Shown: positions 6,349-61,960, numbered from the stretch's first letter. The stretch: 64,000 nt of DNA from Dehalococcoidia bacterium (GCA_965116365.1 OZ220682.1:2008001-2072000), one strand, 5' to 3'. Notes: a model not told the origin generated them from the letters alone. Made by a program: numbers and translations.

Positions 6349-7185
6349 CTACATCAGGTCGATCATACCGACTAGGTGTTCGAACGATGCGGGGTTTTCC
6401 GCTCGCTTCGCGCGCATTTTCTTGACAAGGTCGAGTTCATCCGTGGTCAGTGCGTTGATGTCTTCAATGTCGATTCCGCGTTCACGGGCACGCTCCAAAG
6501 CGCCGATGGCGTCGCTGTCGACGCCGGCCAATGTCTGGGGATCTATGCCTTGTTGTCTGGATGCGCTGATGAATCCCAGCCAATCAGTGCCGACGTTGCT
6601 GAGTTCGTCGAGGTCTATACCGACGGATCGCGCCTTGTTGATCAGCGCGATGTCGGACTGCGACAGCTGGGAGATGTCTTCGGTGCCTACGCCCTGCACA
6701 ATCAGCTTCGCCAGTGCGTCCAGCATCTCGGTATCGATCAAGTCGATCTGCTCGTCAGTCAGCCCCAGACGCGCCAGTCTGCGGAGCGCAACGACTTGGG
6801 ATGCGGTCAGTTCGGCGAGGTCTTCGAGTGGAACACCGAGTTCTTCGAGCCGTCGCATGGTCCTGTCGGCTTCCGGGTTCAATTCGTCTAGATCATCCGC
6901 GGAGATGCCCATCTCGAGGACGGCGTCGAGAAGTCGAGCGTCTTCTAGCGAAAGTATGCGTACCTCTTCGTCGAAGTAGTGCACTACCCGGCCGTAGTTG
7001 ATACCGAGTTTGGCCATCCAGTAGTTGATGGTCGCTTTCTGAACTCCGATCTCTTTGGAAATGCTTGCGACGGTTTCACCAGGCTCGTTCAGGCGAGCGT
7101 GAAGAGTCTCACGCAGGGGGCCGCCTAGCTTCTTTTCGGCATCTTCTACCGCTTTGGTGATTCTCAAGTAGTTGACCGTAGTCAT
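6349..7185 (-). CDS. HTH DNA-binding protein with seven exact 24-residue tandem repeats (function unknown)
   Basis: The ATG at 7183-7185 gives MTTVNYLRI.... An HTH-like segment ETVASISKEIGVQKATINYWMAKLGI follows. From residue 107 of the ORF-track translation there are seven consecutive 24-aa units, each starting G(I/V/L)xx(E/D)(D/Q)(L/I) (nt 6406-6909). Confidence 0.6.
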   Translation of the reverse strand: MTTVNYLRITKAVEDAEKKLGGPLRETLHARLNEPGETVASISKEIGVQKATINYWMAKLGINYGRVVHYFDEEVRILSLEDARLLDAVLEMGISADDLDELNPEADRTMRRLEELGVPLEDLAELTASQVVALRRLARLGLTDEQIDLIDTEMLDALAKLIVQGVGTEDISQLSQSDIALINKARSVGIDLDELSNVGTDWLGFISASRQQGIDPQTLAGVDSDAIGALERARERGIDIEDINALTTDELDLVKKMRAKRAENPASFEHLVGMIDLM

Positions 7186-7227
7186 TTCTAGCCTCTTCCA
7201 CGGGTTTGGCGGAGTGTCTTTTCGCAT

Positions 7228-7520
7228 CTAATTTTGAATTAGTTTAGATGAAGTCTCATGCGAATATCAATACTTTTCGAAACAAGTCTCGAATTTTCGC
7301 GATCTGCCTTCAGGTGTGTTCAAATTTGTTCAAAATAAATTTAGCATTAATTTGGTTTAAGTTCGTTATAGTTTTGAACTTGTTTAATAATCGATGCGAT
7401 TTCGCTTTGGATTGGCGTGTTTTGGATGATGAACTAGTTTTGGCTAAGTACGAAAATAGGCTTCATCCGCTCTGGCGGCAGTTTGCGGCAAGAAAAAACG
7501 GGGCATTTTGGATTTAGAGA
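7228..7520. other. Strongly AT-rich intergenic block with iterated GTTCAAA and TTTGGAT motifs
   Basis: My hand count gives 13/60 GC for 7321-7380, against 55-67% in neighbouring genes. GTTCAAA occurs at 7318-7324 and 7328-7334, with the inverted TTTGAAC at 7373-7379. TTTGGAT occurs at 7406-7412, 7421-7427 and 7507-7513, all in the same orientation. Confidence 0.6.
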
Positions 7521-7554
7521 TTTGCGGTGTGTACGCGCTCCTGTGGCTGCAACG

Positions 7555-7580
7555 AGGACAGGTTTGAAACCTGCCGCTAC
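7555..7580. repeat. REP-like repeat family C
   Basis: aggacaggtttgaaacctgccgctac. It is inverted relative to the copy at 7820-7849. Confidence 0.8.
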
Positions 7581-7756
7581 CGTATCTCTGAAGATGACCC
7601 CTATCGCCTGCCCTTTCGAAAATGGGGGTAGGAGGGAGCGAGATAGGGTTTGGGACGTGTGCGGTGTCGCGAGGCGTGTTTTCGGGGATGTCTAGTTTGG
7701 GGTCTGCCCTGCCCCGTTTTGAAGTGCGGTGACGGTGTGCTTCTTGCGCTCGACGG

Positions 7757-7796
7757 CCCCCTCACCCTAGCCCTCTCCCACGGAAGGGAGAGGGGA
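7757..7796. repeat. Palindromic repeat family A
   Basis: ccccctcaccctagccctctcccacggaagggagagggga. Confidence 0.85.
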
Positions 7797-7819
7797 TTAA
7801 GTCTCGCGCCAACGCATTC

Positions 7820-15351: not shown

Positions 15352-15524
15352 CCCATGCTCCCGGTTCAAGTCCAGGACAGGCTATCGCCCCCTTGAAGTA
15401 GAAGTGTTTGCTGATCGGTATGCAGTGTGTGAAAATCCGCTTGGCGTAACATCTTTACTCGAGTGACATCAAGCATGTGTATCAAACCGCCAGTGGTTGC
15501 GTAAACGACATAGGAGGAATGCAT

Positions 15525-16421
15525 ATGTCGCTTTCAGTTTCGTGCTACACACGTGTCCAGGGCGATATCGCCATCCGGCTGGCATTGGCAGTCATGGGAT
15601 TCGTCTCGGGGTTAGTGGTAGTTTTCTGGTTCTTGGCCGGAAACGCGATACAAAACGAGTTAATAATCGCCCAAGACGAACCGACCAAGGAGAATTTGAC
15701 ATACACCGTTGTCGTGGATCGCTTTTGGAAAAGAGGAGGCGGAGTATACGGTTCAAAAGACGTTTGGGAAATATACGGTGTCAATGAGTTCCAACAAAAC
15801 GACGATTTCGTAGTCGATCGCTTTTGGTACTCGCCGATCCTTGATGAAGTGATGGAGAGGTGGATGAATCGCGGAAATGTGAGAAGCAACTACGGTGAGA
15901 GATTATTCATTGAAGGCGTTGAACGTGCGCTCATCGACATACCAGGATGTCCGTTGATCCTCATGACCGATAAGCCGTATCGTAGATTGGCGGAGGACAA
16001 TTGGTGGAGTCTGATTGTGCCACATGAGAGAGAAGAAACCTATAGTGGCGACATGCTCCGATGTGAGCGGACATTCTTAAACGAACTGACCCAGGATTTA
16101 GACGAAAAACTGAATAGTGAGGTCAGGGCGTTGGAGGATGAGTTAAAGCAACTGGAGAAAGAAGGAAACTTCTTGGCAGTTGCGTTAAGGTCTGTGCAAG
16201 GCCACGCTGAAGTTCGCAGGGTGGCCACGCAAGATCGGTTTGAGATTGCACTTCTGAGGTTCGACAGTCTGTTGCGCTGGGTAACTGGAGAGACCCATGT
16301 CGATCTATGGGAACCTATCGAGAGCCAAATGCAAGAACCTAGTTCAGAGTCACCAACGGCTTCGCCTGAAGCGCCGGATACAGCACTATTGTCCACTCCA
16401 ACTATCACTCCAACTGAATAA
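15525..16421 (+). CDS. Hypothetical N-terminally membrane-anchored protein with a coiled-coil and a PT-rich tail
   Basis: The ATG at 15525 lies 7 nt after AGGAGG. One TM helix (IRLALAVMGFVSGLVVVFWFLAG), a duplicated VVDRFW motif, a heptad-like segment LDEKLNSEVRALEDELKQLEKEG, and a tail ending STPTITPTE. Two sampled lines give 47% GC. I recognise no family. Confidence 0.5.
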   Translation: MSLSVSCYTRVQGDIAIRLALAVMGFVSGLVVVFWFLAGNAIQNELIIAQDEPTKENLTYTVVVDRFWKRGGGVYGSKDVWEIYGVNEFQQNDDFVVDRFWYSPILDEVMERWMNRGNVRSNYGERLFIEGVERALIDIPGCPLILMTDKPYRRLAEDNWWSLIVPHEREETYSGDMLRCERTFLNELTQDLDEKLNSEVRALEDELKQLEKEGNFLAVALRSVQGHAEVRRVATQDRFEIALLRFDSLLRWVTGETHVDLWEPIESQMQEPSSESPTASPEAPDTALLSTPTITPTE

Positions 16422-59315: not shown

Positions 59316-60092
59316 TCAACCGGCAGGCTGCCACAGGTTGAAGCGAACGCCTTGGGGATCCACGAGGGACGCGAGCGACCCCGGCGGGACATCCATCACC
59401 GGAAATACTACTTTTGCTCCAAGCGATTCGGCTCTTGCAACTGACGCGTGAATATCTTCGACCATGAAGTACGTGGCCCATCGCGCCGTAGATTCGCCCT
59501 CTGTCAACTCGAAAAACGCGCATGGCATCTGCTCACCATCGATGGAAAGCATCGTCACTGTGTAGTCTGAGCCAGCAGCATCACTCATCGGAATCGTTAT
59601 CGTGTCGAAATCTACGCCGAAAGTCTCAGAGTAAAACCGCTTTGCGGCTTCGAGATCTCCGGTGTGATACTCGACCCAACACACCGAACCCGGTTCTCCG
59701 AATATGTCGGCACCGTAACCTTTCAGGCTTTGCCATATGCCGAACACAGGGCCCTCTGGCGTGGCGACGGTTGCGGTTACGCCCCAACCGTCGGCATTGT
59801 GAGGCTCGGTAAGCACGCTACCGCCGTTCGCCTCGATACGTCTCGCCGTCGCTTCGGCATCCTCGACATAGACGCTGTTGACCCACACTCCCATAATCCC
59901 GTGAATTTCATCGTTCTCGGACATACCGGCGATGTTGGTGTCGTTTCTAATCGCCATGTGGTAGGTATTGCCACCCGACATCGGGACATCCGCCCACTCC
60001 CAGCCGAAGAGACCGGAATAGAAATCCTTCGCTCCTTGCGGATCAGGCGTGGACAGATTGAACCAGATCGGGTTGCCTTGCAGTTGCGGCAT
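59316..60092 (-). CDS. Two-domain VOC protein, paralogue 6 of 6
   Basis: MPQLQGNPIWFNLSTPDPQGAKDFYSGLFGWEW. The ATG at 60090-60092 removes the 26-nt overlap with the next gene that the ORF-track start (60134) would create. The start remains uncertain. Confidence 0.75.
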   Translation of the reverse strand: MPQLQGNPIWFNLSTPDPQGAKDFYSGLFGWEWADVPMSGGNTYHMAIRNDTNIAGMSENDEIHGIMGVWVNSVYVEDAEATARRIEANGGSVLTEPHNADGWGVTATVATPEGPVFGIWQSLKGYGADIFGEPGSVCWVEYHTGDLEAAKRFYSETFGVDFDTITIPMSDAAGSDYTVTMLSIDGEQMPCAFFELTEGESTARWATYFMVEDIHASVARAESLGAKVVFPVMDVPPGSLASLVDPQGVRFNLWQPAG

Positions 60093-60108
60093 TCTTGGTT
60101 GAGTTATC

Positions 60109-60780
60109 TCAATGATCCTTTTTGCCTTTTTCATCCAACGGATAGTGCATTAGTTTGTTCAACGTTTCATCATCGAGCCCAGTTTTGTTGGTCTTCACCA
60201 TTTCGTCCCACAACGAACGTAGGTATTTGGCATCTAATTCGCGAGTCACATCGACGATGTTTTCCGTAAGTTCTTTAATGTCGCCGATCTCCAGAATGTA
60301 TCCGTATCGCTCAAGTTCGCCGTCGTACACCGACATGAATGTCGGTATCGGGTGCATATCAGTCCACACAAAACCGGTCAATTTCGAAGACATCAAAACA
60401 GGGCCGTTCCGAAAATCCGATTCGATGTACCGGTTAGGTGAAATAGCACCGTGGATAATGCGATTTCGTCGTTTATTCAGTTCATTGAGACAGGACTGCA
60501 AGTTCACTTTTCCAGTCAACCGCTCAATGGCGAGCGAAACGGGTTGGTGTGCTTCTGATTTATGAAGAAAAGATCGCACATCAAGAATCGGCATCGGATG
60601 AAATGCACCGCCTTCATATTTGGCTTTGTCTAAAGCCCATAGTCTCCATTCCAACTCGGACCACGCCGCATGAAACGAACCTACAGCTCGAATTAAGGCT
60701 TTGCGTTGCATCCCGAAAATCAACTGATTGACACTCCAGGGAAGACGTGATCGAAGGCGTCTGATCCGCGCTTGATCCAT
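60109..60780 (-). CDS. Hypothetical protein with an RNxxxH (HEPN-type) motif, in an AT-rich insert
   Basis: The ATG at 60778-60780 gives MDQARIRRLR.... The motif LNELNKRRNRIIHGA contains R-N-R-I-I-H, which fits the HEPN Rx4-6H consensus. Sampled lines give 42-45% GC, against 55% in the flanking VOC gene. Confidence 0.5.
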   Translation of the reverse strand: MDQARIRRLRSRLPWSVNQLIFGMQRKALIRAVGSFHAAWSELEWRLWALDKAKYEGGAFHPMPILDVRSFLHKSEAHQPVSLAIERLTGKVNLQSCLNELNKRRNRIIHGAISPNRYIESDFRNGPVLMSSKLTGFVWTDMHPIPTFMSVYDGELERYGYILEIGDIKELTENIVDVTRELDAKYLRSLWDEMVKTNKTGLDDETLNKLMHYPLDEKGKKDH

Positions 60781-60923
60781 GTTGAGTTGCTCCTGTTTGA
60801 TTACGAAAAACGTTAGATAGCGAATCCGCACAAAGCGACCGTTGCTTTCGCGGCGGTCTTATCCCGATCACCAAAGATCAGGGGAAGGTAGTTCGATAAT
60901 AGCACATATATTTCATTACGGTT

Positions 60924-61445
60924 TCACTTATTAATCCCTCTCATCATCCCGCGCAGGTACTCGATCTGCCCCAGATGCTCAGCCTCTTCGCAAAGCAGGT
61001 GCCCTAGCACCCACGCGTAGGTGATCGGATCGTAGCGGGGATGCGTTAGCTCGATGGTTAGATCCGATTCTTGCATCTCGTTTTCGAAGTATTCGGTTGT
61101 GCCTTCACGGACGGCTTGGTAGTAGTCCATGACCTTCGGTACATCGAACGCGGGCATGGCGCGGATGTCCTCGGCGGTCTGACCGAATCCGTTGGTCGGC
61201 TCTTCGACGCCGCAGCGCTCGGCCCATCTGTCGCGGTCCCAGATCGATTCTGAATTGCGAAGCCGGACGTTGATCCAGTTGTCCTCAACCCGCGCCATGT
61301 GCCACACCATCCAATCGATGGTGTTCGACTCCAATGCTGGCCGCCAGTGGAGTTCGTCTTCGGAAAGGCCGTCTAGCGCCCTCTTCAGTTTCTCAAAAGC
61401 CTCGTTGAGACCAGAATCGATGGCTGCTAAGAACGGTTTCATCAT
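60924..61445 (-). CDS. DinB-family (four-helix bundle, DinB_2-like) protein, paralogue 1 of 3
   Basis: LDGLSEDELHWRP...NTIDWMVWHMARVED and LGHLLCEEAEHLGQIEYLRGMMRG. Confidence 0.8.
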   Translation of the reverse strand: MMKPFLAAIDSGLNEAFEKLKRALDGLSEDELHWRPALESNTIDWMVWHMARVEDNWINVRLRNSESIWDRDRWAERCGVEEPTNGFGQTAEDIRAMPAFDVPKVMDYYQAVREGTTEYFENEMQESDLTIELTHPRYDPITYAWVLGHLLCEEAEHLGQIEYLRGMMRGINK

Positions 61446-61960
61446 TTGTTAAGTCCTCTCATCATGCCTCGGAGGTACTCGATCTGTCCGAGGTGTTCTG
61501 CCTCTTCGCATAGCAGACGACCCAAGATTTGAGCGCCGGTCCAACCTCGGAAGTTCGTATGTTCGATGACTCTCGACAGGTCATCTTCACTCATAGCGTT
61601 CGCAAAGTAGCCTGACGTCTCTTTACGGATGGATCGATAGTAGCCCATGACTTTCGGAACATCGATCCCACCCATCGCCCGAATCTCATCCATCGTCATC
61701 CCGGCACCAGCGCCGGTGTATGCGATGCCTAGACACTTGCCCCAGCCGTCGCGTTCCCAGATCGGAACTCGTTTTTGAAGTACAACATTGACCAAGTTGT
61801 CTTCTACCCGCGCCATGTGCCAAACCATCCAATCGATAGAGTTCGACTCCAGCGTCGGTTGCCAACTTAGCTCATCCTCACTCAAACCATCCAAAGCACG
61901 ATTCAGCTTCTCGAAGCACTCGTTGACGCCGCTGTCGATGGCTTGCAGAAAAGGTCGCAT
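61442..61960 (-). CDS. DinB-family protein, paralogue 2 of 3
   Basis: By eye about 65% identical to paralogue 1. Its stop overlaps the start of paralogue 1 (ATGA at 61442-61445). Confidence 0.8.
   Translation of the reverse strand: MRPFLQAIDSGVNECFEKLNRALDGLSEDELSWQPTLESNSIDWMVWHMARVEDNLVNVVLQKRVPIWERDGWGKCLGIAYTGAGAGMTMDEIRAMGGIDVPKVMGYYRSIRKETSGYFANAMSEDDLSRVIEHTNFRGWTGAQILGRLLCEEAEHLGQIEYLRGMMRGLNK

Follow-up and report, generated by a model that had tools for sequence, protein, structure and literature searches.

A gene cassette with a single open reading frame lies in the DinB/VOC detoxification cluster of a SAR202 genome, where it appears to have been inserted exactly at the junction of the last DinB gene with the first VOC gene (VOC_1). 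The cassette comprises a conserved leader of ~70 nt and a cargo gene, P0001, whose product is most likely a very divergent RNase of the HEPN superfamily, nearest to the RiboL-PSP and AbiD-AbiF branch. Our best explanation for the locus, which we hold with about as much confidence as doubt, is that the window (the whole 64-kb stretch of DNA that was analyzed) carries a single-gene Abi-like RNase cassette in a defense hotspot exchanged by recombination, and that the cargo represents a new, divergent HEPN-like family.

The coding region was defined from the open reading frame, its translation and the upstream ribosome-binding sequence, as follows.

60109..60780, minus strand: gene of the HEPN-like protein P0001, 223 aa, stop codon included (ORF and translation)
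60790..60794, minus strand: Shine-Dalgarno sequence AGGAG, 8 nt upstream of the ATG at 60780 (sequence)

The 223-aa frame with an RNxxxH motif that the original prediction had described is present here behind a good Shine-Dalgarno sequence, and the translation carries LNELNKRRNRIIHG, in which the motif reads RRNRIIHG. The Shine-Dalgarno sequence is kept as AGGAG, AGGAA or TGGAG in four of the six carriers aligned. Two other starts were considered, a GTG at 60831 that would give a 240-aa protein and the internal Met from which the public gene call for the window genome (P0006, 161 aa, 60109-60594) apparently begins. We prefer the ATG at 60780, and with it the 223-aa form, over both because of the spacing of the AGGAG and because the homologs share the equivalent Met. 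The P0006 call lacks the first 62 residues, a conserved N-terminal part of the protein that is under selection in all homologs. A truncated call of the same kind, P0011, was found in loci L008 and L009; it does not mark a pseudogene, since the short call is an internal-Met annotation and the full frame is intact in L008. The G427 allele, which had looked like a pseudogene with a "TAA inside", was also cleared, the TAA being the natural stop of a 216-aa allele.

The gene differs from its surroundings in composition and constraint. Its GC content is 0.464 and its GC3 0.50, compared with a window mean GC of 0.560 and a GC3 of 0.60-0.75 in the neighboring genes, and only 0.4% of the 672-bp windows in the 64 kb are as GC-low (0.4th percentile). 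With the 143-bp upstream spacer at 0.448, the AT-rich insert expected some 10 GC points below its flanks is borne out, and a low GC of 0.46-0.49 is common to all alleles of the HEPN-like gene. Elsewhere in the window, a 672-bp GC of 0.48 or less occurs only at ~6776-7800 and ~15451-16170, stretches that could hold foreign or accessory genes. Pairwise dN/dS of the HEPN-like gene is 0.23-0.27 for pairs with unsaturated dS, and that of its neighbors is 0.02-0.11. We conclude that this is a real, functional protein-coding gene under purifying selection, less constrained than the genes around it.

The slot that the cassette occupies is bordered by two genes on the same strand.

60924..61445, minus strand: last DinB/MST-family gene, left border of the slot; its stop codon is directly followed by the insert (Pfam MST/DinB_2)
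59316..60092, minus strand: first two-domain VOC (glyoxalase-fold) gene, VOC_1, right border of the slot (Pfam Glyoxalase; junction alignment)

The ATG with which VOC_1 begins in relatives (TGAGATGACTCAACC) reads ATA in the window (60093-60095 region), so the window copy must start at the ATG at 60092 or at the in-frame upstream ATG at 60134. The stop codon of the HEPN-like gene (60109-60111) accordingly lies 16 nt from VOC_1 with the first of these starts and overlaps it with the second, just as had been predicted; in relatives the HEPN-like stop and the VOC_1 start touch or overlap, and the two genes are co-oriented. Gene order is the same at every homolog, down to those of 38-41% identity, and reads UxuA-like, three to four DinB genes, the HEPN-like gene, four to six VOC genes, SDR, epimerase and aconitase. 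Between the epimerase and aconitase genes, a HicA/HicB toxin-antitoxin pair was seen in L001 (15790-16270), L002, L003, L008 (14714-15194) and L009. The absence of an adjacent antitoxin or MNT partner, also predicted, holds in the window and in all homologous loci, where the neighbors of the gene are DinB/MST and VOC genes. VOC_1 was rejected as a dedicated partner or antitoxin, for it is present at empty sites too.

Empty sites were found by a search anchored on the UxuA-like gene, which is 85-96% identical across the genus and gave us the region from ten congeners that lack the HEPN-like gene. The last DinB gene and VOC_1 are only ~26 nt apart in five of these congeners and 109 nt apart in L018, and no remnant of the HEPN-like gene was detected in the congener loci without it. 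The DinB/VOC junction is thus usually empty in congeners, which confirms that the window carries a single-gene insert. In L023 (G420) the cluster breaks off behind its first DinB gene (after position 1623), and unrelated Hsp20-like, dehydrogenase, SulP-type transporter and DXP synthase-like genes follow, an arrangement that suggests rearrangement rather than insertion. Two further loci carry a different gene at the slot.

L021, 7624-8208, plus strand: NYN-domain gene in the DinB/VOC slot (Pfam NYN)
L024, 9580-10158, minus strand: NYN-domain gene in the DinB/VOC slot (Pfam NYN; HEC-09 match)

Their products are 192-194 aa long with an NYN domain (Pfam E 2e-16 and 5e-9, respectively), and the L024 protein matches the PADLOC candidate HEC-09 (PDLC04163) over its full length with an E of 2.3e-41. 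In L021, VOC_1 is present as two ORFs of 131 and 189 aa, a split that a frameshift probably caused. Alignment of the junctions showed that the insert spans the interval from the DinB stop codon to the VOC_1 ribosome-binding site and ATG, replacing ~12 nt of the empty-site spacer. Terminal or direct repeats, a target-site duplication and mobility genes are all absent at the insert, and we therefore find no sign that the cassette originated as a mobile element.

The history of the slot does not follow that of its flanks. When the flanking UxuA-like and DinB_a proteins were placed on a tree, loci with an empty slot, a HEPN-like gene or an NYN gene were interspersed; a clade with 94/96 support holds all three states, the HEPN-like locus L007 pairs with the NYN locus L024, and the basal clade is empty. 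The flanks of L007 are the closest to those of the window (DinB_a 97%, SDR 94%, dS ~0.8), yet its HEPN-like allele is only 40% identical. Between the window and L001, the dS of the HEPN-like gene (0.56) is lower than that of every neighbor. The divergence of the HEPN-like alleles is discordant with the divergence of the flanks, and the site combines presence and absence with cargo replacement at a fixed position between conserved genes, as a hotspot does.

These observations also bear on a non-conflict role, in which the protein would be a functional accessory of the DinB/VOC detoxification cluster, such as an enzyme, an RNA-processing factor or a regulatory factor, kept in some species. Such a role would fit the position of every homolog at the same place inside the cluster, its orientation and its contact or overlap with VOC_1, and the observation that VOC_1 diverges roughly in step with the HEPN-like gene. 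We nevertheless consider it quite improbable, given that most congeners retain the entire cluster, with VOC_1, yet lack the HEPN-like gene, that an unrelated NYN gene can take its place in the slot, that the composition is foreign in all alleles, and that the history of the alleles disagrees with that of the flanks.

Relatives have a second variable site, located between their first two DinB genes; the window has no equivalent there, its DinB genes abutting at 61960/61974. The inserts at this site were as follows.

L004, 1252-6183: second-site insert with an OLD/AriA/GajA-like ATPase and a HepT/MNT pair
L010, 2824-6160: second-site insert with a PD-Lambda-2_B-like gene (E 8e-38), a HigB-like toxin and a 133-aa unannotated protein
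L005, 2475-6183: second-site insert with five unannotated genes, one of them with an fn3 domain
L021, 1626-5781: second-site insert of 4 kb

Judged by the predicted functions of such genes, the DinB/VOC cluster contains hotspots of a defense type. According to the original prediction, homologs in ordinary metabolic contexts would speak against a defense nuclease. All homologs do lie among detoxification-type genes and not in a classical defense island, which we count against the defense reading, but the same cluster holds the defense-type hotspots, and the resemblance to an ordinary metabolic context is only superficial.

The HEPN-like family is small. A word-indexed search of 5.8 billion proteins returned eight relatives of P0001 at 61-82% identity, and HMMER, run exhaustively over 1.84 billion representatives, contributed only two further real members, P0010 (41%) and P0011 (38%). 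P0012 was rejected as spurious, being a 2110-aa repeat protein that matched through summed 36-residue segments. No further members came from a profile search and a region-limited search of the 5.8 billion proteins, none of the 1.84 and 5.8 billion proteins bridged the family to an annotated one, and scans of genome, metagenome and viral contigs found only the genus-restricted family of P0001. The family amounts to ~10 protein clusters among the billions of proteins searched, all in one SAR202 (Chloroflexota) genus, and its carriers are SAR202-cluster/Dehalococcoidia MAGs. The window genome, a single contig of 2.45 Mb, carries the gene once, the gene is present in 4 of the 36 species genomes of the genus with the window genome included, and it was not found in ~400 other genomes sampled from the class. 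NCBIfam, PADLOC and PHROG gave no match for any allele (with PADLOC-DB v2, no model at E up to 10 for P0001 or at E up to 1 for 11 alleles), and a PDB sequence profile search with P0001 was likewise empty, with no match to a HEPN protein, in agreement with the earlier statement that the protein belongs to no recognizable family. On the strength of these searches, the HEPN-like proteins form a new and, as far as the databases covered extend, genus-restricted family. The insert is not the recent acquisition unique to the window genome that might have been supposed; it is an old polymorphic cassette common to several species of the genus.

The assignment of P0001 to the HEPN superfamily begins with the motif.

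60448..60471, minus strand: codons R104-R105-N106-R107-I108-I109-H110-G111, putative HEPN Rx4-6H catalytic motif (sequence, conservation and PF18735 alignment)

The residues R105-N106-R107-I108-I109-H110 have the form described for the superfamily, Rx4-6H with a usually polar residue after the R. RNxxxH alone is weak evidence because it occurs three times in the long frames of the window and in 2.4% of shuffles of P0001. The motif gains weight because it is invariant across alleles that are only 34-40% identical: R105, N106, I109, H110 and G111 are the same in 11 of 11 aligned sequences with identity down to 34%, so the conservation of R and H that would be expected of a catalytic pair was found in every homolog aligned. 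Thirty other columns of this alignment are as invariant as those of the motif, and the invariant positions are densest in two helices, 15-52 (50%) and the motif-bearing 95-111 (53%).

Searches with Pfam and profile-profile comparison point in the same direction at different strengths. P0001 matches HEPN_RiboL-PSP (PF18735) over residues 96-119 with 15.8 bits (E 0.013), below the gathering cut-off of 28.4 bits, and by that family's own criterion it is not a PF18735 member. A sub-threshold PF18735 match at the motif recurs in all eight members scanned (best E 0.007), one member also matches HEPN_Cthe2314 (PF18730), another HEPN family, and the eight members match only four Pfam families at E<1, two of which are HEPN. 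As a comparison set we used 21 above-threshold PF18735 proteins from Chloroflexota genomes, all of which carry R-[NH]-x-hydrophobic-[AV]-H. Aligned with these by hhalign, the family profile reached a probability of 52%, an E of 1.4e-4 and a score of 34.0, compared with a maximum of 18.8 in 40 column shuffles and 13.3 with the reversed alignment. The comparison pairs LNKRRNRIIHG of the family with L..RNxIAHG of PF18735 and is confident only for the ~60 columns that surround the motif; when relaxed, the alignment was colinear across query positions 5-138 without a gain in confidence. About 110 residues follow the motif in P0001 and ~30 in the PF18735 profile. HEPN proteins have a conserved acidic residue in helix 2 close to the active site. 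Of the residues that could correspond to it, E44 and D51 are at least 90% conserved and E42 less so, in a region where the register of the relaxed alignment is unreliable. Profile comparison thus favors a HEPN relationship in the hhalign score, which far exceeds the shuffles, but not in the Pfam score, which stays under the gathering cut-off.

Structure prediction gave a similarly divided picture. A first AF2 model from 8 sequences had a pLDDT of 48 and was too poor for use; a second, from 11 sequences, had a pLDDT of 67 and a pTM of 0.65, a moderate confidence, with confident helices at 15-52, 81-87, 95-109 and 165-197. In this model helix 95-109 terminates in the motif and gives way to a strand or loop, and the pLDDT over residues 81-110 is 87-90. 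The Rx4-6H motif of HEPN proteins sits at the end of helix 3 (Anantharaman et al., PMC3710099). The expectation of the original prediction that R and H would stand at the start of helix 3 was therefore mistaken, and the AF2 model places the motif where the published description does. The helices, together with an insert at 53-94, are compatible in this moderate-confidence model with a four-helix up-and-down HEPN core carrying an insert between helices 2 and 3. When the pLDDT-67 model was searched with Foldseek against PDB and BFVD, no match was significant and the top matches included no HEPN structure. The predicted HEPN bundle thus agrees with the model in motif position, and its helix layout may fit, but it has no counterpart in the structure search.

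Given these results, we regard P0001 as a probable member of the HEPN superfamily on the basis of its sequence and model. The proposal that it is a HEPN RNase keeps the invariant motif, the PF18735 matches, the hhalign result and the context of the slot on its side; it loses the Pfam cut-off, Foldseek and PADLOC. The principal alternative is a lineage-specific helical protein outside the HEPN superfamily, for example a nucleic-acid-binding or regulatory protein, that arrived at RNxxxHG by convergence and makes the cassette an accessory element with a role other than RNA cleavage. The arginine-rich N-terminus of P0001 would suit such a protein, as would the lack of a significant structural match to any HEPN, of an above-threshold Pfam match and of bridge sequences to annotated families, the frequency of RNxxxH in shuffles and in the long frames of the window, and the thirty equally invariant columns. 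Convergence would leave unexplained why the profile-profile score lies far above both the shuffled and the reversed controls, why two of only four Pfam families matched at E<1 are HEPN, why the motif falls at the helix end expected of HEPN proteins, and why the other cargo found in the slot likewise has an RNase-type domain. We consider this alternative unlikely, though substantial enough to be taken seriously.

The second conserved part of the cassette lies upstream of the gene, in the spacer that separates it from the DinB stop codon.

60896..60904, minus strand: extended -10-like box TGCTATTAT (TGnTAnnnT), head of the leader
60862..60886, minus strand: leader hairpin 1 (RNAalifold consensus; nearly invariant in all occupied slots)
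60830..60858, minus strand: leader hairpin 2 with T-run, terminator-like (folds, alifold pair table and CM score)

Alignment of the upstream spacers revealed a nearly invariant 57-nt two-hairpin element with the consensus CCCCCTGATCTTCGGTGATGGGGTTAAGACCGCCGCGAAAGCGGCGGTCGCTTTTT, preceded by an invariant TGnTAnnnT box. Counted with the box, the leader is ~70 nt long and consists of the extended -10-like box, hairpin 1 and the terminator-like hairpin 2. The TG, the TA and the final T of the box are invariant across HEPN-like and NYN cassettes. Hairpin 2 in relatives is GACCGCCGC-GAAA-GCGGCGGTC, a 9-bp GC stem capped by a GAAA loop and followed by a T-run. In the window copy, changes of GG to AA break two pairs and the T-run is weaker, and the window leader has the lowest covariance-model score of all copies, 79.5 bits compared with 91-102 bits. 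The leader is found in all carriers, even those with only 40% protein identity, and the ~45 nt between it and the start codon vary freely among carriers. Each occupied slot, HEPN-like or NYN, has one leader, and empty sites have none. No further copies were detected in the 64-kb window, in 306 kb of loci searched with the covariance model or in viral contigs. A dispersed (REP-like) repeat was rejected as the identity of the leader on this distribution, one copy per occupied slot and none elsewhere in the 306 kb. The leader has no Rfam match and no tandem repeats, and a consensus scan of the window copy found no full sigma-70 promoter and no terminator. With one compensatory pair and two G-U changes, the copies vary too little for a covariation test. 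A 9-codon ORF, MKLPPPDLR-stop (polyproline), runs across hairpin 1 (window 60870-60898, minus strand) in most copies, with equivalents in L001, L007, L008 and L021, an ATC in place of the start in the window and ATG-TAG in L010; it has no Shine-Dalgarno sequence and is unlikely to be translated.

The ORFs of the NYN cassettes start ~12 nt past the T-run, so expression of the NYN cargo must depend on read-through of hairpin 2. From the sequence, we infer that the leader joins a promoter to an attenuator, or to an insulating terminator, that would keep a toxic cargo low. The conservation of its loops and linker, as read from the alignment, exceeds the needs of a plain terminator. One elaboration, to which we assign a slim chance, is that the leader is a cargo-independent control module or a recombination arm of a nuclease cassette system not described before; unrelated RNases (the HEPN-like family, NYN/HEC-09) would then be swapped behind a fixed sensor or attenuator RNA, their expression gated by conditional read-through, as upon phage infection, or by the leader RNA as a common antidote.

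An RNA antidote was also considered in a more specific form, an addiction module of the type III/I-like kind in which the leader RNA (hairpin 1 and terminator) neutralizes the nuclease or represses its translation. Type III toxin-antitoxin systems of the ToxIN kind have the order antitoxin RNA tandem repeats, terminator and endoRNase gene. The cassette resembles them in architecture, with a -10-like box, then a short, conserved, structured RNA-like element whose terminator-like hairpin comes last, and a nuclease gene directly downstream. The leader is conserved including its loops and linker while the next 45 nt and the protein diverge to saturation, and no protein antitoxin is present, as an RNA antidote would allow. 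The cassette departs from type III systems in its lack of ToxI-type tandem repeats and in its toxin fold, and a single RNA precedes two unrelated nuclease folds, which argues against specific recognition of a toxin by the RNA. Nor does the leader match Rfam or vary enough to offer covariation, and in the window hairpin 2 is damaged yet the gene is intact. We therefore judge an addiction module to be very unlikely.

The closest known systems share some features with the cassette and lack others. PF18735 HEPN_RiboL-PSP proteins have the same L-x2-L-x3-R-N-x-I-x-H-G block at a helix end, are likewise small and mostly helical, and belong to the only family matched by all members scanned; the P0001 locus differs in having neither an L-PSP fusion nor a ParB neighbor. 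AbiD/AbiF and HEC-08 are similar to P0001 in being stand-alone genes with no antitoxin partner, a conserved Rx4-6H and an accessory place in a variable locus. Unlike them, P0001 has no sequence match to their PADLOC models and no zinc-ribbon C-terminus. HEC-09 connects to the cassette through the NYN genes of L021 and L024, predicted single-gene RNases in the identical slot behind the identical leader, and differs from the helical HEPN-like protein by its PIN-like NYN fold. HepT, of the HepT/MNT systems (type II/type VII TA), is like P0001 in that the latter is a putative HEPN RNase with an Rx4H motif, but no MNT nucleotidyltransferase gene adjoins P0001 and the protein is about twice the size of HepT. 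The genuine HepT/MNT pair elsewhere in the L004 cluster is unrelated to P0001.

Single-gene HEPN defenses include relatives of AbiD/AbiF (PMC3710099) and HEC-08, which has been validated as a defense system (bioRxiv 10.1101/2024.01.29.577857). The lack of an antitoxin is no obstacle to a HEPN-RNase reading of P0001, because such single-gene HEPN defenses exist. HEC-09 was proposed as a defense RNase in the same study but gave no protection against the phages tested (bioRxiv 10.1101/2024.01.29.577857), and we count this published result for the match of the alternative cargo against the defense reading. [quoted passage not shown] The RNase activity of HEPN proteins is metal-independent and depends on the R and the H. 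The leader would provide the promoter and, through its terminator, keep the HEPN-like protein at a low level. Phage infection or some other trigger would then lead to cleavage of RNA by the protein and to cell arrest, and the presumed role of the cassette would be defense.

If P0001 is an active HEPN RNase, it would add a new and very divergent single-gene family to the candidate anti-phage and toxin effectors, in an uncultured marine and sponge-associated lineage, SAR202, whose defense systems have barely been explored. The architecture is the more unusual feature, in that two unrelated predicted RNases alternate at one slot behind a near-invariant leader, with coding sequences that are saturated. 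The cassette may thus serve as a testable case of a shared cis-regulatory, or RNA-antidote, module placed over interchangeable toxic effectors, and the leader sequence offers a handle for finding further cargo genes. The cluster also suggests that DinB/VOC detoxification arrays can host defense hotspots, which screens centered on classical defense islands would miss.
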